This document shows positions 3,599-21,941 of a stretch of DNA of 24,000 nt, piece by piece. Source of the DNA: Terriglobia bacterium (GTDB taxonomy: Bacteria; Acidobacteriota; Terriglobia; Versatilivoradales; Versatilivoraceae); the NCBI GenBank assembly GCA_022452285.1, contig JAKUNG010000001.1, forward strand, positions 308,924-332,923, read 5' to 3'. Position 1 is the stretch's first letter. Every line of letters begins with the position of its first letter. A program made the position numbers and the translations under genes. Under the pieces are notes generated by a model that was given only the letters and a program-made list of their open reading frames with translations, was not told where the DNA came from and searched no databases.

Positions 3599-3996
3599 CT
3601 AAGATCCCTCCAAATTTAGAAGTATTCAAACTACGTTGTCATGATTTGGTTGTCAACTCTGAGTTTGTTCATCAAAAATAGGTTTGTCAAAAAATAAACG
3701 AAGAATTGCCTAGTTTGTTTATTTTCAAAGTACTCAGTGACACTCAATTAATTTTTTAAAAGTTTTCACTTTTCTAAAAAACCTAATAAAATTATTTAAT
3801 GTTTTATTCTGTTATTGTATGGTTGCTACTTAACTAGAATAGGGTCACTGACAATATTTCTAACAAAATTAAAATTTTTATACTTATATGTAACAAAAAT
3901 TAACAGTTTCTGTTGGTTAGCTGAAAATGTATTGAACCCGTCAAGAGAACTAAGATTTTTTCCCTTTGGGCCTAAATGTTTGGAGGAATATATCAA

Positions 3997-4275
3997 ATGG
4001 CAGAACGAGTCGTAAAGTGTGTCAAGCTTCAACGAGAATTACCGGGACTGGAACACCCTCCTTTTAGTGGGGAACTAGGACAGCGCATATTTGAAAACGT
4101 TTCTGCAGAAGCCTGGGGAATGTTTCGCGAGCATCTTAAAATGGTTATTAATGAATATCGTTTAACCATGGGTACTGAAGAAGCGAATGAAATTGTTGAA
4201 AAACAAACGGAAGATTACTTTTTTGGCCCTGGAGCAGCCTTACCTCCAGGATATGTTCCCCCAAAAACTAAATGA
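3997..4275 (+). CDS. yggX: Fe(2+)-trafficking / oxidative-damage protection protein YggX
   Basis: MAERVVKCVKLQRELPGLEHPPFSGELGQRIFENVSAEAWGMFREHLKMVINEYRL is the canonical YggX pattern. I chose ATG 3997 (GGAGGA at 3983-3988) rather than the track start at 3976. Confidence 0.85.
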   Translation: MAERVVKCVKLQRELPGLEHPPFSGELGQRIFENVSAEAWGMFREHLKMVINEYRLTMGTEEANEIVEKQTEDYFFGPGAALPPGYVPPKTK

Positions 4276-4425: not shown

Positions 4426-5847
4426 ATGAATGTCGTCTTAATTTCTACATATGATTTAGGACACCAACCATTTGGATTGGCTTCTCCTGCAGCTTGGCTT
4501 AAACGTGTAGGAGCTTCAGTAAAATGTTTTGATTTAACAGTCCAAAAATTAGAACCTCCTGTAATAAAAAAAGCTTGTTTGATCGGTTTTTTTCTGCCCA
4601 TGCACACCGCAACACGCCAGGCTATTAAGATAATTCAGCTAGTAAAACAATTTAATTCAAAAGCCCATTTATGTGCATATGGATTGTATGCGCCACTTAA
4701 TAAAGAATTTCTAAGTGAATTAGGAATTCAAACATTCTTTGGAGGAGAATTTGAAGAAGGCTTGCTTCAGCTCGCCAATGTTATAAAACTAAACCCAAAC
4801 CAACTAGACAAAGTTACAATTAACCAACCGCCTTATATTTCAGTTGCTCGACAGGAGTTTTGTAAACCTGATCGAACAAACTTACCTAGCCTTAAAAATT
4901 ATGCACACCTTCTAACGGCAGGATCAAAAAAAGTTTCTGGTTACACTGAGGCTAGCCGAGGTTGTCAACATCACTGTAAACATTGTCCTATTGTACCGGT
5001 TTACCAAGGAAAGTTTAGAGTTGTCCAAAAAGAGATTGTATTACAAGATATTCAACAACAAATTAACGCTGGCGCAGAACATATTACCTTTGGAGATCCT
5101 GATTTTTTCAATGGAGTTAAACACTCGCTGGAAATTGTGCGTGACCTAAATAGGAGATACCCCCAGGTTAGTTATGATGTAACCATTAAAATTGAGCATC
5201 TTTTAAGATATGCTTCTCATCTACAGAGCTTGAAGGAAACAGGCTGTCTTTTTATTACTAGCGCAGTTGAATCCCTAGATGACCATGTATTAAAGCTTCT
5301 AAATAAAGGTCACACTCAGAATGACTTTTTGAAAGCTCTCGAACTACTATCTGCACTAGAATTGCCTCTTAATCCCACTTTTATTCCTTTTACTCCCTGG
5401 ACTAGCTGGAAAAATTATTGTGAACTGCTAGATATATTACTAGAAAAAAACCTAATGGAATGTATATCACCAGTCCAACTAGCTATTCGTCTTTTGATTC
5501 CATCAGAGTCACCTTTACTAGAATTGACCGAGATTCAGAAAGTAGTAAAAAGCTTTAACAAGAAAAAGTTGAGCTACTCATGGAAACACCCTGATCCTAG
5601 CATAGAAGGCCTATACTGCCAGATTCAACAACAGGTATACCAAGGCAATTCCCAAGGCCTTAGTCGCAGTCAGATTTTTGCTTCTATTTGGACTCTAGCC
5701 CACTCTAAAAATCCTTCAGAACAACATAATTCTATGACTTTTCCTGTACAACCCTCTCGAACAACCATCCCTTTTTTAGAGGAACCCTGGTACTGCTGAG
5801 CAGAGCCTCTAGATGAGCAGTCTGCTCCTTTTGAATCAGTTCTATGA
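4426..5847 (+). CDS. CUAEP/CCAEP-tail radical SAM (seleno)protein; the in-frame TGA at 5797-5799 is read as selenocysteine
   Basis: N-terminal B12-binding-like fold (VVLISTYDLGHQPFGLASPAAWL). Radical SAM CxxxCxxC motif (SRGCQHHCKHCPIV). The track ORF ends ...EEPWYC-TGA, and the same frame continues GCA GAG CCT = AEP, giving C-U-A-E-P, then 12 more codons to TGA 5845-5847. The start could instead be TTG 4417. Without recoding the CDS ends at 5799. Confidence 0.7.
5798..5827 (+). promoter_or_regulatory. candidate bacterial SECIS hairpin(s) downstream of, and overlapping, the UGA
   Basis: GAGCAGA 5798-5804 is the exact reverse complement of TCTGCTC 5821-5827 (7 bp; inner CUC 5807-5809 / GAG 5815-5817; apical loop UAGAU). 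Alternatively GAGCA 5815-5819 pairs with UGCUC 5823-5827 around a GUC triloop. The two folds are mutually exclusive. Folded by eye only. Confidence 0.35.
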
Positions 5848-5899
5848 GTTACTATTTGCCTCAAAAAAACCATAATAATCGTGTTAATGGAATTTGCTA

Positions 5900-7156
5900 A
5901 TGAAAAGGATTTTGTTGTTATTCACAACAACTGGCTATAATGCACAAGACTTCATTGAAGCTGCACGAAAACTAAATATTAAAGTGATACCTGGCACAGA
6001 TCGGTGTGACGTACTAGACGATCCTTGGAAAGATGGAGCACTTCCCCTACGTTTTACCCGTCCGAGTGAAGCAGCACAAAAAATCATGGATTATGCTCGT
6101 AATCATCCAATTGATGCCATTATTTCTGTCGGTGATTCAACAACAATAGCAGGAGCTCTCGCTACAAGAAAACTTAGATTAATAGGTAACTCACCAGAAT
6201 CTGTAAAAAGTTGTCACAGTAAACTTTTATCTAGAAAAATTCTTAAAAAAGCAGGAATACCAGTCCCAGATTTTCAAAACATCTTACTTTCTCAAGATGC
6301 TAAAAAATTATCTAAGTCAATCAAATTTCCGTGTGTATTAAAGCCACTTTCCCTTTCAACAAGCCAAGGAGTCATAAGAGCAAATGATTGTACTTCTTTC
6401 GTAAAAGCTTTTCATAGGGTGCAAAAACTCCTTCAACTACCTAGAATTCAAAAATATCAACCCTTTGACCTTGATCAAATTTTGGTAGAAGACTATTTGG
6501 ACGGTCAAGAATTCGCATTAGAGGGACTTTTAAACAATGGCAAACTAAAAACTCTAGCATTATTTGACAAACCAGATCCTTTACAGGGCCCTTTTTTTGA
6601 GGAAACTATATATACTACTCCATCTCGACTACCAACTAGACTGCAAAAGGAACTGTTGTCCTGCTGTCAAAAAGCTTCTCAGGCACTGGGACTAACTGAT
6701 GGTCCAATCCATGCAGAACTTAGACTCAACCGAGAAGGGCCTTGGATTATTGAAATTGCTCCAAGGACCATCGGTGGTCTTTGTTCTAGAGCACTTCGTT
6801 TTGGCATAGGCATGTCTTTAGAAGAAATACATATCCGACACAAATTTAAAATGCCTATTCCCTCATTGAAACTTAAAGATCGGTCTGCTGGTGTAATGAT
6901 GTTACCAATAAAGAGAAAGGGAATCCTACGCAGAGTCTCTGGATTGAAACAAGCTTTATCAATTCAAGGAATAGTTGATGTAACAGTAACGGCTAAAAAA
7001 GGCCAACTTCTTATCCCGCCACCGGAAGGTGACAGCTATCTTGGTTTTCTATTTGCTCGAGGCTCCTCTTCAGAAAAAGTAGAAAAAACCCTTAAGACTG
7101 CCCATCAGCAATTAAGCTTCGATGTTTATCCGGAAGTCCCAGTCTTGTCTAGCTAG
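5900..7156 (+). CDS. ATP-grasp domain protein (carboxylate-amine ligase-like), substrate unknown
   Basis: About 418 aa. Pre-ATP-grasp N-domain (KRILLLFTTTGYNAQDFIEAARKLNIKVI), then LSRKILKKAGIPVPDF, FPCVLKPLSLSTSQGV, ILVEDYLDGQEFALEGL and IHAELRLNREGPWIIEIAPRTIGG, which are typical ATP-grasp_4-type elements. It starts 52 nt after the extended radical SAM CDS on the same strand. An alternative TTG start is at 5894. Confidence 0.8.
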   Translation: MKRILLLFTTTGYNAQDFIEAARKLNIKVIPGTDRCDVLDDPWKDGALPLRFTRPSEAAQKIMDYARNHPIDAIISVGDSTTIAGALATRKLRLIGNSPESVKSCHSKLLSRKILKKAGIPVPDFQNILLSQDAKKLSKSIKFPCVLKPLSLSTSQGVIRANDCTSFVKAFHRVQKLLQLPRIQKYQPFDLDQILVEDYLDGQEFALEGLLNNGKLKTLALFDKPDPLQGPFFEETIYTTPSRLPTRLQKELLSCCQKASQALGLTDGPIHAELRLNREGPWIIEIAPRTIGGLCSRALRFGIGMSLEEIHIRHKFKMPIPSLKLKDRSAGVMMLPIKRKGILRRVSGLKQALSIQGIVDVTVTAKKGQLLIPPPEGDSYLGFLFARGSSSEKVEKTLKTAHQQLSFDVYPEVPVLSS

Positions 7157-7225: not shown

Positions 7226-8239
7226 TCATCCACCCAGACTAATCATCTCTATTTTCTTGTGATCTTCAGCTCTGTAACCATTCTCTGAATAAAGAGCTTC
7301 CCATCTTTTTTCTGAATATCGATCGTTTCTTTCTTTCCAAATATTCTTTATTAGATCTTTCATTTCCTGAACAGATGCACCTTGGCGTAGAAACATCTTA
7401 AGATTTTCTCCAACTTCCGAAAAAAGACACGTAACTAACTTTCCATCGGCCGTCAACCTTGCTCGAGTGCACCCAGAGCAAAATGGTTCCGTTACTGAAG
7501 CAATAACTCCCAATCTTGTTGTAGTGCCACTTAATTGATAATCAACAGCAGGAGCTCGCCCTTGTTCACGGCCTAATTCTTCAAATGAAAACTTTTCTTC
7601 AATCTCTTTTAGAATCTCTTTCTTTGGGACCATCTTGTCAGATTTCCATTTATTAGCATTTCCTACATCCATAAATTCAATAAAGCGAATGTCAAATCCA
7701 TGCTTCATAGAAAATTCGACAAGTGGAATAATCTCTTCATCATTAACTCCTCTTTCAATTACTGCATTTATCTTTATAGGTTGGAACCCCTCACTCTTAG
7801 CCATAAAAAGCCCTTCTAATACTTTTGATAAACTTCCCCGCTTCACTATTTTTTTAAACTTTTCATGATCCAAGGTGTCTAAACTCAGGTTTATCCGTCT
7901 GAGTCCAGCACTCTTAAGTTCCGCAGCTTGCTTGGCTAGATAGGCACCATTGGTAGTAAGACAAAGATCTTTTAAACTATCAATTGACGATAAGCGACTG
8001 ATCAATTTATGGAGATCTTTTCTTAGTAGAGGTTCTCCTCCAGTTAAACGAATTCTTTCCACACCCAAATCAACAAACACTCTAGCCAGGAGTTCTATTT
8101 CTTCAAAAGTTAAAATTTCTTCTCTGTCAATCCATACATATTCATCAAAAGGCATACAGTACGAGCAACGGAAATTACATCGATCTGTAACCGAAATTCG
8201 CAAATCCTTTATAGGTCTCTGAAAAGTATCAATCAACAT
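7226..8239 (-). CDS. moaA: GTP 3',8-cyclase (molybdenum cofactor biosynthesis protein A)
   Basis: 337 aa. LRISVTDRCNFRCSYCMP radical SAM motif, C-terminal auxiliary cluster Cys residues (PFCSGCTRARLTADGKLVTCLF) and the conserved terminal Gly-Gly followed by a TGA stop. Confidence 0.92.
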   Translation of the reverse strand: MLIDTFQRPIKDLRISVTDRCNFRCSYCMPFDEYVWIDREEILTFEEIELLARVFVDLGVERIRLTGGEPLLRKDLHKLISRLSSIDSLKDLCLTTNGAYLAKQAAELKSAGLRRINLSLDTLDHEKFKKIVKRGSLSKVLEGLFMAKSEGFQPIKINAVIERGVNDEEIIPLVEFSMKHGFDIRFIEFMDVGNANKWKSDKMVPKKEILKEIEEKFSFEELGREQGRAPAVDYQLSGTTTRLGVIASVTEPFCSGCTRARLTADGKLVTCLFSEVGENLKMFLRQGASVQEMKDLIKNIWKERNDRYSEKRWEALYSENGYRAEDHKKIEMISLGG

Positions 8240-8419: not shown

Positions 8420-8743
8420 CTATACTTGGAATGATTCTCCACAACCACAGGTACTCTTAACATTAGGATTATGAAATTTGAACCCTGCCCCGGTCAGACT
8501 TTCTATATAGTCTATTTCGGTGCCATCCAAATAGATCATACTACCTTTATCAACAAAAACTTTGAAACCTGGCATCTCAAGGATCTCATCTCCTCCATTA
8601 CTCTGTTTTTCAAAGCCCATTTGATACTGAAACCCTGAGCACCCGCCTCCAACAATTTGAACCCTCAAACCGGCAAACCCATCTTCTTGGCTTTCGAGAA
8701 TTTCCTTCACCTTTCCTTGAGCTTTTTCAGTGATTTTCAACAT
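8420..8743 (-). CDS. erpA: iron-sulfur cluster insertion/assembly protein, A-type carrier (IscA/ErpA/HesB family)
   Basis: 107 aa. GLRVQIVGGGCSGFQY and the C-terminal CGCGESF give the three conserved cluster-ligand cysteines of A-type carriers. Confidence 0.85.
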   Translation of the reverse strand: MLKITEKAQGKVKEILESQEDGFAGLRVQIVGGGCSGFQYQMGFEKQSNGGDEILEMPGFKVFVDKGSMIYLDGTEIDYIESLTGAGFKFHNPNVKSTCGCGESFQV

Positions 8744-9878: not shown

Positions 9879-11930
9879 CTACTTAGAAGGAGTCCCAATT
9901 TGTACAAGATCCTGACCTTCCGGTTTTTTCTTTAGAACCATCTCTTCATATACCTTGCGAACCTCAGCTGCTTCTCTTGCTGCCTTACGTCGCAATTTAT
10001 CCTCCTGAGCTGCTGTCTGAGGACCATCATCAACAGTTCTTACTCTAGCTGCATCTTTTTCGTCGATTTTAAGCATGTGTTCATAGGAGCCCAAACCAAC
10101 TTCCTTACCCTTAGCAAAAACTTCGTGTTTGCCATTTTCTCGATACCACTGGGCCACCGTTGCATTTTTATGCATATTTTCAATAATCTTTCTCCAACCT
10201 ACCCCAGTGTTATAAGCACAAAATGAAATCTCACCCTCTTGGGTCCCATAGGGAATAATACACATTTCTGTTCGACGAAAGTCGTAGTTAAACAAATCTT
10301 GAAACCACATCCCTGCAATGAATAGAAAATTCCAAGGATCTGTCCGACGCTTTTTTATATCTTCCATAGTCCGTTCTGGACCTGAGCTTCCATATTTTTT
10401 ATCTGAATCCCCAGAAGCATCCCAAGTTTTATCAAATTTCCTAAGAATGGCACTAAGGGTAAGGCTCGGAGGGGCTTTGAATGGTGAAAAATTCTTCAAC
10501 AAAGCTAATGCCATCATAAAGTTGGAGAACTTTCTCCCGCGAGCAGCATCCGTTACCTTTTGCATATCTTTAACCAGTCCAGGTATATGTATAAATTGGG
10601 GAACAGGAGCCATTTCTTTATTTTCTTTATTAATCATAACAGCTGTTCCTACACCACAATTGGGATGACAACCACAACTAAAAGACCCCCACTGCTGCTC
10701 GGGTCCGTGCACTAAGTCCGAAAAATCAGCAAAGCTTGACATGAGTGAAATTGGAAACCAATCACGGGTTGGCTCTCCTATTCCTGCTTGTTCTTTTACA
10801 TCACTAGCCATGTGCGACAGAGTATAACGTTGCCGATGACGACGGTCTGGAGTAATCTCTTCATCCCTCCCGGTAAACGAAACTGGCTGGAAAGAAACAA
10901 AGGAAATTTTCTTAGGATTCTCAATTGCAAATTTAATAATTGGTCCGACCTGATCATTATTTAAATTGTTAACTAATGTTGTCACCAGAACAATTTCAAT
11001 TCCAGCTTCATGCATGTTATTAATTGCCCGGAGTTTCACATCAAAAAGGTTTCCAACTTGCCTATGCCCATTGGCATCGTTTCCAATACCATCGAACTGG
11101 AGATACGCATAGCGGAGACCAGCTTCAGCAGCTTCTCGTGCAAAAGCTTTGCTCTTAGCAAACTCAATACCATTTGTGGCTGCCTGAACACTGTTATAAC
11201 CCAATTCACGTGATAATCTAATAGCTTTCAGAAAATAAGGAGAAATCGTTGGTTCACCACCTGAGAATTGAATAGACATCTGTCGCTTTGGCTTGATTTC
11301 CATAGCATTCCGCATTATCTCTTCTATATCATCCCAGCTAAGTTCATGGACATATCCCACTTGATTTGCGTCCATAAAACATGGATCACACATCATGTTG
11401 CAACGGTTTGTTAAATCGACAGTCAAAACTGATCCTCGTCCGTATTTTACTGTACTGGTACCATGATTATGAAGCCGATCATCGTTGTGGGCTCTAATAT
11501 CCCTTCCAGGGAAATTACCTTCAATCCATTCCAAAAATTTAACATCACTAGCCATTAAATCTTCAAATTTACCATGTTCTGGACATTCCTTTACCATCCA
11601 TACTTGCCCATCACGCTCAATGATTTGGGCTTTGATTTCACCAACATGTTCGTCAATTAAAGAACGCCAGTCTTTTTCCCCGTTAATAATTTTTTCCCGG
11701 GCTTCCATGACACACTGAGGGCAAAGAGAATCCGTAGTTCTCGGAAACCCAAGTGTAGGTTTAGATTTCTCCCATGATTTTAATAGAGGCTTGTCAGACC
11801 ATTTTGGGGTAAATGAAGGATTGGGATTAAATTGATTAAAAAACTGGATGGAGTTAAAAAGACCCCTTGCTGTGGAACAGATAGCACTATCCACATATTT
11901 CATAACACGATGATTTTTGACGCTAGCCAT
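9879..11930 (-). CDS. large radical SAM protein, COG1964-like architecture (possible tetraether-lipid-synthase Tes/GDGT-MAS-like enzyme)
   Basis: N-terminal Cys/His ribbon (TDSLCPQC ... KECPEHGKF). DLTNRCNMMCDPCF (CxxxCxxC), IQFSGGEPT, ATNG, YLQFDG, FQPVSFTGR. C-terminal Cys cluster SCGCHPNCG. Charged K/E/R/A tail. I chose ATG 11930 (AGGAGG at 11935-11940 revcomp) over the track TTG at 11966. Confidence 0.75.
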   Translation of the reverse strand: MASVKNHRVMKYVDSAICSTARGLFNSIQFFNQFNPNPSFTPKWSDKPLLKSWEKSKPTLGFPRTTDSLCPQCVMEAREKIINGEKDWRSLIDEHVGEIKAQIIERDGQVWMVKECPEHGKFEDLMASDVKFLEWIEGNFPGRDIRAHNDDRLHNHGTSTVKYGRGSVLTVDLTNRCNMMCDPCFMDANQVGYVHELSWDDIEEIMRNAMEIKPKRQMSIQFSGGEPTISPYFLKAIRLSRELGYNSVQAATNGIEFAKSKAFAREAAEAGLRYAYLQFDGIGNDANGHRQVGNLFDVKLRAINNMHEAGIEIVLVTTLVNNLNNDQVGPIIKFAIENPKKISFVSFQPVSFTGRDEEITPDRRHRQRYTLSHMASDVKEQAGIGEPTRDWFPISLMSSFADFSDLVHGPEQQWGSFSCGCHPNCGVGTAVMINKENKEMAPVPQFIHIPGLVKDMQKVTDAARGRKFSNFMMALALLKNFSPFKAPPSLTLSAILRKFDKTWDASGDSDKKYGSSGPERTMEDIKKRRTDPWNFLFIAGMWFQDLFNYDFRRTEMCIIPYGTQEGEISFCAYNTGVGWRKIIENMHKNATVAQWYRENGKHEVFAKGKEVGLGSYEHMLKIDEKDAARVRTVDDGPQTAAQEDKLRRKAAREAAEVRKVYEEMVLKKKPEGQDLVQIGTPSK

Positions 11931-12161
11931 TTTTCCTCCTATTATTCCATCACCTAAGGCACTCAATGATAGAACATTTTGGAAATGGTTTGCCTTGCTG
12001 TATACAAACCCAAAATTAGAAATAAACTTTTAGTCTTTGCTTTATAAAACTCTCCTACTGAATTCATACTTAATCTTACTATTCTAAACTATAAACCTTT
12101 AAAATTATTACGGTTGGAATTTTATCATACTTAGTTAGTTATATTAGGAATACATTTCAGA

Positions 12162-19922: not shown

Positions 19923-20894
19923 ATGATTAAACCTGAAGACCATGATTTCTTTGAAAAAGAATTAGAATCATTTTTGCCTGACCAAATCTTTGACGCCCAT
20001 GCGCATGTTTGGTCACATCAAAACATGCTTAAAAACAGAACAATCAAAACATTACCGAGAAACGGAAATTTTGAGGAATTTTCCAAAATGCTTCAAGCAT
20101 TGCATCCCCAAAGAACTTGTGCTGCGAATGTTTTTCACCGTATATGCCCCGCTGAATACTTTGATTCAGCTAATAAATGGACTAGTCAACAAGTCAAATG
20201 TGACCCAAATTACCGAGGACTTTTTTTAATGTCTCCTGATACAGATCCTGAATGGTTACGTAAAGAAGTAAACCGTTTAGGTTTGAGCGGCCTCAAGTGT
20301 TACCACGTTTATTCTAAAGTTAATCCTACCTGGGAAGCAGAAATCCCTGATTACCTTCCAGAAAGATTAGTCCAAGTAGCGCATCAGGAAGGCTGGGTTA
20401 TCATGCTCCATATGGTTCGGCCAAGAGCCTGTGCAGACAAAGGTAATCTTTACTGGATTCGTCGCTATTGTGAAAAATATCCTAACATGAAATTAATTTT
20501 GGCACATTCGGCTCGTGGCTTTCAGCCAGCTCATAACCTAGAAGGACTGTCTCATTTAAGAGGATTATCAAATCTTTATTTTGATACTAGTGCAAATTGC
20601 GAGCCCATTGCTCACCAAGCCATCATACGAATTATCGGACATCAAAAACTGATGTATGGTACAGACATTCCAGTAAGCCATCTACGGGGAAAATCCGTAT
20701 CGGTAGGGGATACTTTTCTGTGGTTATATGAAAATTCTCCAGTTTGGGGAGAAAAACACCAGTCAATTAAACCCGTACTTATTGGGTTGGAACATTTGCG
20801 GTCACTGAAATGGGCCTGCTGGTCAGAAAAATTATCTGATAAACAAGTAGAGGATATTTTTTGGAATAATGCAGCGGAATTATTTGGAATTTAA
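19923..20894 (+). CDS. metal-dependent hydrolase, Amidohydro_2 (TIM-barrel) family, paralog 1
   Basis: 323 aa. FDAHAHVW (H-x-H metal ligands), MLHMVR, ILAHSARGF, YFDTSAN and YGTDIP (Asp) fit the amidohydrolase-2 (lactonase/decarboxylase) fold. No signal peptide. Confidence 0.75.
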   Translation: MIKPEDHDFFEKELESFLPDQIFDAHAHVWSHQNMLKNRTIKTLPRNGNFEEFSKMLQALHPQRTCAANVFHRICPAEYFDSANKWTSQQVKCDPNYRGLFLMSPDTDPEWLRKEVNRLGLSGLKCYHVYSKVNPTWEAEIPDYLPERLVQVAHQEGWVIMLHMVRPRACADKGNLYWIRRYCEKYPNMKLILAHSARGFQPAHNLEGLSHLRGLSNLYFDTSANCEPIAHQAIIRIIGHQKLMYGTDIPVSHLRGKSVSVGDTFLWLYENSPVWGEKHQSIKPVLIGLEHLRSLKWACWSEKLSDKQVEDIFWNNAAELFGI

Positions 20895-20918: not shown

Positions 20919-21941
20919 ATGAAAACAGATACTCCTAGCTATATAGCACGCCCAGAAGACAAAGAATTCTATGAACGAGAACTGGCATCTTTTATTCCAG
21001 ACAAGGTTTTTGATGCTCATACCCATGTTTGGCATTCTAACCATTGTCAATTTCCTGAACAGTTTCCACCGGTTGTTGACTATCAGACCTATATAAAATT
21101 AATGGAAGATATCCATCCAGGAAGAATAACTAAGGCTCTTTTTATTCCAACTTTTAGAGATCCCCAATCCAGTAACCCCATAAGACCACGTCCATCTTTT
21201 ATTACCGATGCTAATCAGTGGACTAGTGATCAAACTGCCAAAGACCAAAATTGTCGGGGTCACTTTTTTATAAAACCGGATGATGACCCCGAATGGGTAC
21301 GTCAGGAAGTTAAACGTTTAGGACTTTGTGGACTGAAATGCTACCACTCACTATCCCTTAATCCAGAATCAACTTTTGAAGCACAAATTCCTGACTATTT
21401 GCCTGAAACTCTTATTAAGGTTGCCCATGAAGAGGAATGGACTATTACTCTACACATGGTGAGAGCCCGTGCCGCAGCTGACCCTGGAAACATTCATTGG
21501 ATTCGCCATTACTGTGAAAACTATCCAAAGATGCAATTGATTTTAGCGCACTCGGCCCGCGGCTTTCAGCCAGCTCATAATTTGGAAGGTTTACCTCAGT
21601 TAACTGGACTTGATAACCTGTGGTTTGATACCAGTGCTAACTGTGAAGCCATGGCTCATCAAGCAATCATACGCATAATTGGCCACGACAAACTTCTCTA
21701 TGGAGGCGATTTGCCGGTTACCCATGGGCGTGGGCGATCACTGGGGGTTCAAGATTCTTTTCTTTGGCTATATGAAGATTCTCCAGTTTGGGGAGAAAAA
21801 CACCAATCAATTAAACCCGTTTTTACTGGCTTGGAGCATCTACGGTCTATTAAATGGGCTTGTTGGTCAGAAAATCTTACTGATAACCAAATTGAAGATA
21901 TCTTTTGGAATAATGCGGCTAAATTATTTAGACTTTCTTAA
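20919..21941 (+). CDS. metal-dependent hydrolase, Amidohydro_2 (TIM-barrel) family, paralog 2
   Basis: 340 aa, roughly two-thirds identical to the upstream paralog by eye. FDAHTHVW, TLHMVR, ILAHSARGF, WFDTSAN, YGGDLP. AAGGAG at 20904-20909. Confidence 0.75.
   Translation: MKTDTPSYIARPEDKEFYERELASFIPDKVFDAHTHVWHSNHCQFPEQFPPVVDYQTYIKLMEDIHPGRITKALFIPTFRDPQSSNPIRPRPSFITDANQWTSDQTAKDQNCRGHFFIKPDDDPEWVRQEVKRLGLCGLKCYHSLSLNPESTFEAQIPDYLPETLIKVAHEEEWTITLHMVRARAAADPGNIHWIRHYCENYPKMQLILAHSARGFQPAHNLEGLPQLTGLDNLWFDTSANCEAMAHQAIIRIIGHDKLLYGGDLPVTHGRGRSLGVQDSFLWLYEDSPVWGEKHQSIKPVFTGLEHLRSIKWACWSENLTDNQIEDIFWNNAAKLFRLS

Follow-up and report, generated by a model that had tools for sequence, protein, structure and literature searches.

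A putative selenocysteine codon in a radical SAM gene of the CUAEP/CCAEP-tail family from a low-GC lineage of the Acidobacteriota

Does the in-frame UGA codon close to the 3' end of a radical S-adenosylmethionine (SAM) gene from a Terriglobia bacterium terminate translation, or is it read as selenocysteine (Sec)? The gene is located on a stretch of 24,000 nucleotides (nt), positions 308,924 to 332,923 of contig JAKUNG010000001.1 (assembly GCA_022452285.1), which is "the window" in the following, and all coordinates are those of the window. An open reading frame (ORF) on the plus strand, 4426-5796, starts with an ATG at position 4426 and extends to Cys457 (TGC, 5794-5796), encoding a radical SAM core between a Rossmann-like domain at the N terminus and a helical region at the C terminus. 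The residues ...EEPWYC are directly followed by the TGA at 5797-5799, by 15 further codons at 5800-5844 (GCA GAG CCT CTA GAT GAG CAG TCT GCT CCT TTT GAA TCA GTT CTA; AEPLDEQSAPFESVL), which would be translated only upon recoding of the UGA, and by a second TGA at 5845-5847, the stop codon of the putative selenoprotein. The product would possess the motif C-[U/C]-A-E-P in the form ...EPWY-C457-UGA-A-E-P, with a Cys457-Sec458 dyad. An earlier note on this DNA had read the two TGA codons, the A-E-P codons between them, and a length of the read-through product of 473 amino acid residues in this way, and the sequence agrees, so that the radical SAM selenoprotein gene would span positions 4426-5847. 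Family membership and a selenocysteine insertion sequence (SECIS) element, taken together as comparative evidence, make it very probable that the UGA at 5797-5799 is recoded to Sec.

The UGA codon and the tail behind it

The earlier note had named a radical SAM family with a CUAEP/CCAEP tail. This family exists as the NCBIfam equivalog model NF040546, "CUAEP/CCAEP-tail radical SAM (seleno)protein," with a cut-off of 500 bits, and the gene scored above this cut-off. With U entered as C, the extended protein reached 592.1 bits and covered positions 1-467 of the 468 profile positions, while the UGA-truncated form reached 571.3 bits and positions 1-457. The 10 residues past Cys457 aligned to profile positions 458-467, the UGA codon corresponding to position 458, and contributed a gain of about 21 bits. 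Judged by this profile alignment, the gene is a full-length member of NF040546 and nothing different in kind. The family was entered as an uncharacterized selenoprotein with a rare CU motif by Haft in 2022 (bioRxiv 10.1101/2022.07.06.499078). Neither the recoding event nor the family is new to the catalogues; what the gene adds is an ordinary member, from a new lineage of low G+C content.

Pfam recognized only one generic domain, PF04055 (Radical_SAM), at residues 177-321 with 52 bits. The CX3CX2C motif, whose cysteines coordinate the radical SAM [4Fe-4S] cluster, can be read directly from the sequence as CQHHCKHC (C180, C184, and C187; 4963-4986, plus strand), and it did not vary in two alignments, one of 32 and one of 43 homologues. 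Among 5.8 billion proteins searched, at least 8,000 were relatives with an E value of 1e-10 or below, and those with a name were mostly from metagenome-assembled genomes (MAGs) of Acidobacteriota. Most of the best 120 homologues ended exactly at ...EPWYC, and the others continued as ...EPWYCCAEPT.[ED]Q.... The window protein shares with the NF040546 members the CX3CX2C motif and the EPWYC-[U/C]-AEP tail, its U being aligned with a Cys of other members; it differs from the GC-rich members by its low-GC lineage (38-39%), a tail of 15 residues, and a weaker SECIS stem.

Together with the window, DNA from 15 loci in genomes and 80 in metagenomes provided 92 tails that were readable across the critical codon. 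The codon at the U position was TGA in 64 of them, TGC in 21, and TGT in 7, which places Cys homologues at the U position in 28 of the 92 loci. The sequence E-P-W-[Y/F]-C upstream of this position was kept in all 64 TGA tails and in 26 of 27 distinct Cys tails (E-A-W-Y-C in locus L020), and [A/S]-E-P-x-x-[E/D/G]-Q-hydrophobic-[A/V] followed in frame in 92 of the 92 tails. The consensus A-E-P-x-x-[EDG]-Q-h-[AV]-x-h describes the tails of Sec and Cys orthologues alike. The tails ended 9 to 33 codons past the U/C position, almost always with V, L, I, or F as the last residue. The conserved tail is also seen in the nearest relatives of the window organism: locus L007 with the tail AEPIKEQSAPFESVL, which encodes a protein with 92% identity to the window protein, the sister lineage L103 with AEPIEEQVALF (61% identity, 45% G+C), and a contig binned to the Caldilineaceae with AEPTEEQLAPI. 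The earlier note had named homologues ending at WYC without a conserved downstream frame, or nonconserved AEP codons in the orthologous loci, as findings that would speak against recoding; instead, the 64 TGA loci all kept the tail in frame and A/S-E-P was present throughout the 92 tails.

In a rough neighbor-joining tree, which is indicative only, Sec forms were basal and occurred throughout, and Cys forms appeared in at least six derived clades. This suggests that, on the basis of these sequences, Sec was the ancestral residue and was repeatedly replaced by Cys. One metagenome contig, Ga0209415_10004480 (L076), contained two 3' ends of radical SAM genes at positions 11327 and 13145, about 1.8 kb apart, both with a TGA, the tail AEPTEEQVALV, and the hairpin, which points to a tandem duplication or, alternatively, to an artefact of assembly.

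Could the TGA be an error, or a sense codon in this organism? The contig collection lists the identical window protein in 25 blocks, and its gene was read on 23 contigs, so that the TGA is not a sequencing or assembly error. As the earlier note had stated, TGA is an ordinary stop codon elsewhere in the window. It ends the genes for YggX, MoaA (which terminates with ...SLGG), orf319, and VKOR, and an internal TGA was found in none of the 18 other window genes. Within this stretch, these four stops and the missing internal TGA codons exclude a reassigned genetic code. A scan of the window for ORFs split by UGA returned only this gene, the remaining matches being antisense ORFs inside known genes. 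The arrangement of UGA and tail is well beyond chance because the residues after the TGA align to NF040546 and an RNA covariance model built from the orthologues matches positions 5797-5836, as described below.

The hairpin downstream of the UGA and the route of decoding

Two copies of GAGCAG are located at 5798-5803 and 5815-5820, and both are complementary to CTGCTC at 5822-5827, which had led the earlier note to propose hairpins. The second copy does form a conserved stem. The first copy contains only the U-A-E codons and was ruled out as a stem arm, its pairing not being conserved in the orthologues. The SECIS-type hairpin defined by comparison, from a homologous 6-bp stem in the Sec loci and a covariance model, is positioned at 5812-5830 on the plus strand. 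Its core stem in the window consists of G5815-C5827, A5816-U5826, G5817-C5825, and C5818-G5824 (GAGC/GCUC) around the loop AGUCU (5819-5823), followed outward by the mismatch U5814xC5828 and the pairs A5813-U5829 and G5812.U5830.

When the U of the UGA is numbered as nt 1, the stem of the orthologues comprises nt 17-22 and 28-33, with a five-base loop in 40 sequences, and with a 3' arm shifted by one base and a four-base loop in 24 sequences. A23 was present in 63 and G24 in all of the 64 Sec sequences, and a U occurred at nt 25 or 26 in 61 of them; nt 25 was U or G in every Sec sequence except L024, and U26 was found in 59. The Gln codon that gives C22-A23-G24 was CAG in 63 of 64 Sec loci. 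The six stem pairs were held in 64, 64, 55, 64, 62, and 52 of the 64 Sec loci, as opposed to 21, 13, 16, 23, 13, and 15 of 27 Cys loci, and covariation in the Sec loci included exchanges of GC to CG and back as well as GC/AU/CG/UA exchanges. The mean local folding energy was -10.3 kcal/mol for Sec and -4.4 kcal/mol for Cys loci at a similar G+C content (0.61 versus 0.63; Mann-Whitney p ~1e-12). Judged by pairing and folding energy, the Cys loci have largely lost the hairpin, which is specific to the TGA loci.

Thirty-nine Sec sequences, among them neither the window nor L007, were aligned without gaps. In this alignment 94.9% of the cells were paired, compared to 84.0% after shuffling (such a value was reached in 0 of 500 shuffles) and 40-52% with slid partner columns, and double changes occurred at three of the six stem pairs. 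A covariance model from these 39 Sec loci found a sole significant match on either strand of the 24-kb window, at 5797-5836 with 32.7 bits and an E value of 3.7e-10, the next-best match having an E value of 0.8; the model is not a pure test of structure because it also captures conserved codons. The RNA folding near the UGA that the earlier note had asked for was uninformative from the window sequence alone but revealed the element once orthologues were compared.

SelB reportedly contacts the loop bases G23/U24 of the SECIS element of fdhF from Escherichia coli, in the work of Böck and Fourmy. The hairpin here resembles such bacterial SECIS elements of the fdhF type in that it is short, lies within the coding region shortly after the UGA, and has G24 in the loop and, in nearly all Sec loci, a U at nt 25 or 26. 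It differs from them by the lack of an evident bulged U, by a loop of 4 or 5 nt in two registers, and by the lack of a match to an Rfam model. Some Cys-form loci with the tail ...RDQLVSIG (L068, L083, L091, L100, L101, and similar ones) possess a partial hairpin, GGGACC AGUU GGUCUC, because the D-Q-L-V codons are nearly palindromic. This partial hairpin could have remained from a SECIS that was lost recently, or it could simply result from the encoded peptide.

In the standard bacterial route, the hairpin would act as SECIS and recruit SelB with Sec-tRNA(Sec) to the UGA at 5797-5799. The 5' arm would start 13 to 15 nt and the conserved loop G would be 21 nt past the UGA, and translation beyond Sec458 would terminate at the TGA at 5845-5847. 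Several observations weigh against this assignment. The minimum-free-energy fold of the window region 5790-5860 was no better than that of shuffled sequences (z = 0.32), and the window hairpin, with 4 bp, one mismatch, and 2 bp, is weaker than those of the GC-rich orthologues. Rfam yielded no SECIS or other credible RNA family, either at the gathering threshold over the whole window or at an E value of up to 10 over 5700-5950. The p value of the comparison between Sec and Cys loci overstates independence because the sequences are related. Moreover, NCBIfam scans found no selA, selB, or selD among the 19 window ORFs, so that the decoding machinery of the organism is assumed; ARAGORN detected no tRNA-Sec, and indeed no tRNA of any kind, in the window and 40 loci related to it; and selA, selB, selD, and tRNA-Sec were also not present in the 5.5 kb further upstream that can be seen in L001 or in the vicinity of the related loci. 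Selenoproteins have been reported from Acidobacteria (PMC1794560).

Alternatively, the UGA may be decoded by a suppressor tRNA or a tRNA-Sec-like tRNA with a UCA anticodon, leading to Cys or Ser at position 458 instead of, or in addition to, Sec. Acidobacteria carry unusual allo-tRNAs, which are possible nonsense suppressors, and in deltaproteobacteria a selC*-tRNA(Cys)UCA can decode Sec codons as Cys (PMC5389517). Cys is also tolerated at this site, as the 28 Cys orthologues demonstrate. General opal suppression, however, would read the four normal TGA stops of the window as well, and it would not need a covarying hairpin at a specific position. Such a hairpin, present in UGA loci only, is the hallmark of SelB and SECIS and favors the SelB route over insertion of Cys or Ser; the NCBIfam curators also class the family as a selenoprotein. 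Decoding by such a tRNA is thus a very unlikely explanation.

Even less credible is a genuine stop after ...EPWYC, with the AEP codons as a relic and the hairpin as terminator or attenuator in front of the downstream ATP-grasp gene. It is true that gene callers make Cys457 the last residue of the protein in every public assembly, that shuffled sequences fold as well as the window region does, and that the hairpin at 5815-5827 with the following CTTTTGAATC was flagged in a scan for terminator-like sites. This flag was raised because CTTTT comes after the hairpin; the region contained 3 terminator-like sites, compared to 3.2 in shuffled sequences, and the terminator reading was ruled out since no T-run accompanies the hairpin in the GC-rich orthologues. 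In addition, all 64 TGA loci conserved the amino acids in frame for at least 11 codons past the TGA, in agreement with the Cys tails, and the tail lifts the family score by the 21 bits mentioned above. Insertion of Sec via SelB remains the preferred interpretation. In the AT-rich lineage, the hairpin (5815-5836) with its CTTTTGAATC might in principle have a second effect and lower the transcription that reaches the ATP-grasp gene.

Neighboring genes and the source lineage

The gene order around the radical SAM gene is YggX (+), radical SAM (+), ATP-grasp (+), MoaA (-), an IscA/ErpA-type gene (-), orf319 (-), and a Tes/TrsS-like radical SAM gene (-). The ATP-grasp gene (5900-7156, plus strand), a probable operon partner, begins 52 nt past the assigned stop codon and encodes a ligase of the L-amino-acid-ligase type with the Pfam domains ATP-grasp_4 and LAL_C2. 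Its best sequence matches in the PDB were the L-amino acid ligase BL00235 (3vot, E value 1.5e-35) and BacD, and none of the curated NCBIfam models matched at cut-off. The gene for YggX (3976-4275, plus strand), a protein for Fe(II) trafficking and protection from oxidative damage, is located 150 nt upstream of the radical SAM gene (NF003817, 110.6 bits, cut-off 74). The gene for MoaA (7226-8239, minus strand; TIGR02666, 396 bits) is loosely associated.

At least 1.5 kb of sequence beyond the radical SAM gene was available for 61 loci, and in 44 of these the next gene downstream encoded an orthologue of the ATP-grasp protein (42-55% identity). YggX adjoined the pair of radical SAM and ATP-grasp genes in most loci, either upstream on the same strand, as in the window, or convergent after the ATP-grasp gene. 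This linkage survived rearrangement, suggesting that the ATP-grasp gene and YggX are functionally tied to the radical SAM gene. MoaA was near the radical SAM gene in 13 loci with differing arrangements, within about 1 to 3 kb in a minority of the lineages, and about 1 kb upstream and divergent in one subgroup; its proximity may be no more than synteny. Apart from ATP-grasp, YggX, and sometimes MoaA, a de novo clustering of the neighbors returned only housekeeping genes (aconitase, NadA, glucose-6-phosphate dehydrogenase, and Lgt) and antisense artefacts.

Genes for oxidative stress and Fe-S maintenance are found near the locus: those for superoxide dismutase (175-801), YggX (3976-4275), and an IscA/ErpA-type protein (8420-8743). 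MutY and thioredoxin are encoded just upstream in L001 (1-1599), and Fpg directly upstream of the radical SAM gene in the Caldilineaceae-binned locus L102. This clustering may be a coincidence.

The closest genome is a MAG of an uncultured member of the Acidobacteriota (contig CAYWYX010000019.1), 92% identical and fully syntenic. The G+C content is 39% in the window, 37-39% in the window and its closest relatives (L001-L007 and L022), and 45% in L103, compared to 58-66% in almost all other loci of the family, from Terriglobia, Vicinamibacterales, Bryobacteraceae, and others. The source is thus an unusually AT-rich and possibly genome-streamlined lineage of the Acidobacteriota.

Further downstream, at 9879-11966 on the minus strand, the window encodes a radical SAM protein of 695 residues with a zinc-ribbon N terminus, which is conserved with 97% in L007 and apparently also present in L103. 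It scored 330 bits with the model for the tetraether lipid synthase Tes (NF045702, cut-off 450) and 223 bits with that for the "radical SAM (seleno)protein TrsS" (cut-off 490), and from its sequence it could be an acidobacterial Tes-like enzyme for membrane-spanning lipids. As a hidden selenoprotein it was rejected, its frame being closed on both sides with no in-frame UGA extension. Two adjacent plus-strand ORFs at 19923-20894 and 20919-21941 (323 and 340 residues), with the C termini ...WNNAAELFGI and ...WNNAAKLFRLS, are probably tandem paralogues by sequence; neither matched NCBIfam at an E value of up to 1e-5.

Relatives of the protein and a possible role of the tail

A structure was predicted for a Cys-form homologue, P0022, in place of the UGA-bearing window protein. 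The AlphaFold2 model had a mean predicted local distance difference test (pLDDT) value of 91.4 and a predicted template modeling score of 0.90, with pLDDT values of about 84 falling to 70 in the EPWYCC segment. Foldseek matched this model to AprD4, TsrM, OxsB, MgmA, and MiaB, which share 15-18% identity, a Rossmann-like N-terminal domain, and the radical SAM core; the best matches were AprD4, TsrM, and OxsB with E values of 1e-17 to 1e-15 and template modeling scores of about 0.65-0.70. A sequence search of the PDB returned no close solved homologue, only MgmA with an E value of 0.007. The fold of AprD4, TsrM, and OxsB, which have an N-terminal domain of the cobalamin-binding type, is like that of the P0022 model, but these enzymes are without a Cys-Sec tail. 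PF02310 was recorded for some of the homologues only, and weakly for one. AprD4 is not known to bind cobalamin.

The second-best family of the window protein was ArsL (NF040542) with 292.6-292.8 bits over residues 4-407, below the cut-off of 450 and with the tail of the profile (positions 415-423) unaligned. ArsL cleaves the C(gamma)-S bond of SAM to yield a 3-amino-3-carboxypropyl (ACP) species and binds As(III) via the three cysteines of its RCCLKC tail; without this tail, cleavage of SAM remains intact but formation of the C-As bond is lost (bioRxiv 10.1101/2024.02.01.577332 and 10.64898/2026.04.29.721666). The gene as ArsL itself was rejected by the score, the tail motif, and the lacking ars neighbors. 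What the two proteins have in common is a Rossmann-like N-terminal domain, the CX3CX2C core, and a C-terminal tail with vicinal soft ligands.

A function of the Cys-Sec dyad can be proposed from this likeness because ArsL, as the closest characterized relative, holds As(III) on its Cys tail. The product of the gene, with its N-terminal Rossmann-like domain, CX3CX2C radical SAM core, and ...EPWY-Cys457-Sec458-AEP... tail, would use the dyad as a mobile soft-ligand arm that holds a thiophilic atom or substrate, such as a metalloid or chalcogen species, at the site of the cluster and SAM. A carbon fragment derived from SAM would be attached to the atom or substrate on this arm, the amino-acid-like product would be handed over to the co-transcribed ATP-grasp enzyme of the L-amino-acid-ligase type, and YggX would help to keep the oxygen-sensitive Fe-S cluster intact. 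By analogy, Cys457-Sec458 as a substrate-holding arm can be put forward tentatively, at somewhat less than even chances, and the transfer of the product to the ligase is more doubtful.

A number of findings count against this proposal. The tail C-U/C-A-E-P offers two chalcogen ligands, about 50 residues farther along, compared to the three cysteines in R-C-C-L-K-C of ArsL. No arsenic genes are present in the window, and none, including arsM and arsQ, occurred among the recurrent neighbor clusters of 91 loci, the partners of ArsL being arsM and arsQ as opposed to the L-amino-acid-ligase-type ATP-grasp protein and YggX here. The ATP-grasp neighbor is missing in about 28% of the loci and in the Caldilineaceae-binned contig. 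Since most of the other neighbors are housekeeping genes, the linkage may in part be synteny inherited within one phylum. All evidence on function is indirect, and the mechanism of the tail is derived by analogy.

As an alternative, with the UGA still decoded as Sec, the dyad may be a redox-active selenenylsulfide that carries electrons or hydrogen atoms to or from the radical SAM active site, for instance to resolve a product radical or to reduce a disulfide, without holding a substrate. A vicinal Cys-Sec pair is the redox unit of mammalian thioredoxin reductase. The Gly-Cys-Sec-Gly tail of this enzyme resembles the present one by the vicinal pair on a possibly flexible C-terminal extension. 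However, Sec is penultimate there (GCUG-COOH) and is combined with a flavin/dithiol center, whereas 15 residues follow Sec in the window protein, 9 to 33 conserved residues follow it in the orthologues, the flanks are Y-C-U-A, and the protein is a radical SAM enzyme. The model confidence of the EPWYCC segment is moderate, so that this segment may dock on the protein. Redox selenoproteins typically allow Sec to be exchanged for Cys (PMC1794560), and 28 of the 92 orthologues have Cys at this site; genes for YggX and superoxide dismutase are nearby, with MutY and thioredoxin upstream in L001. On the other hand, no dedicated reductase is conserved in the neighborhood, and ArsL, the only characterized relative, uses its Cys tail to bind the substrate and not for redox chemistry. 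CU motifs have been placed with metal and organometal chemistry, in HgcA, MerT, and the SAO system (Haft 2022, bioRxiv 10.1101/2022.07.06.499078). These CU-motif selenoproteins (HgcA, the SAO-locus proteins, and MerT variants) share with the window protein the rare Cys-Sec dipeptide, but folds and contexts are unrelated and the likeness concerns the motif only. A redox role of the dyad is rather unlikely.

Assuming the substrate-holding arm, the radical SAM protein and the L-amino-acid ligase may together constitute a conserved pathway of two enzymes, nearly a core trait of Acidobacteriota. An ArsL-like cleavage would place the 3-amino-3-carboxypropyl group onto Se, S, or As held by the selenolate and thiolate, and the ligase would convert the unusual amino acid, which could be (seleno)homocysteine-like or arsinothricin-like, into a dipeptide metabolite. 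Such a pathway, and such a product, is a long shot.

The recoding event is routine, and the selenocysteine would be no surprise to a specialist. The additions made here, namely, the comparative description of the SECIS, the apparently ancestral Sec, the recurrent cassette of radical SAM, ligase, and YggX genes, and the tail hypothesis based on ArsL, are modest and should be regarded as leads and not as discoveries. Since gene callers truncate the protein in almost every public assembly, the SECIS description could be used to repair the annotations. For this abundant and uncharacterized family, a testable lead results from ArsL as nearest relative, a Sec/Cys dyad in an analogous place, and a ligase and YggX that travel with the gene. 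If a selenolate does serve as substrate arm, this would extend carbon-heteroatom bond formation of the ArsL type beyond arsenic and would mean a new catalytic role for selenium in radical SAM enzymes.

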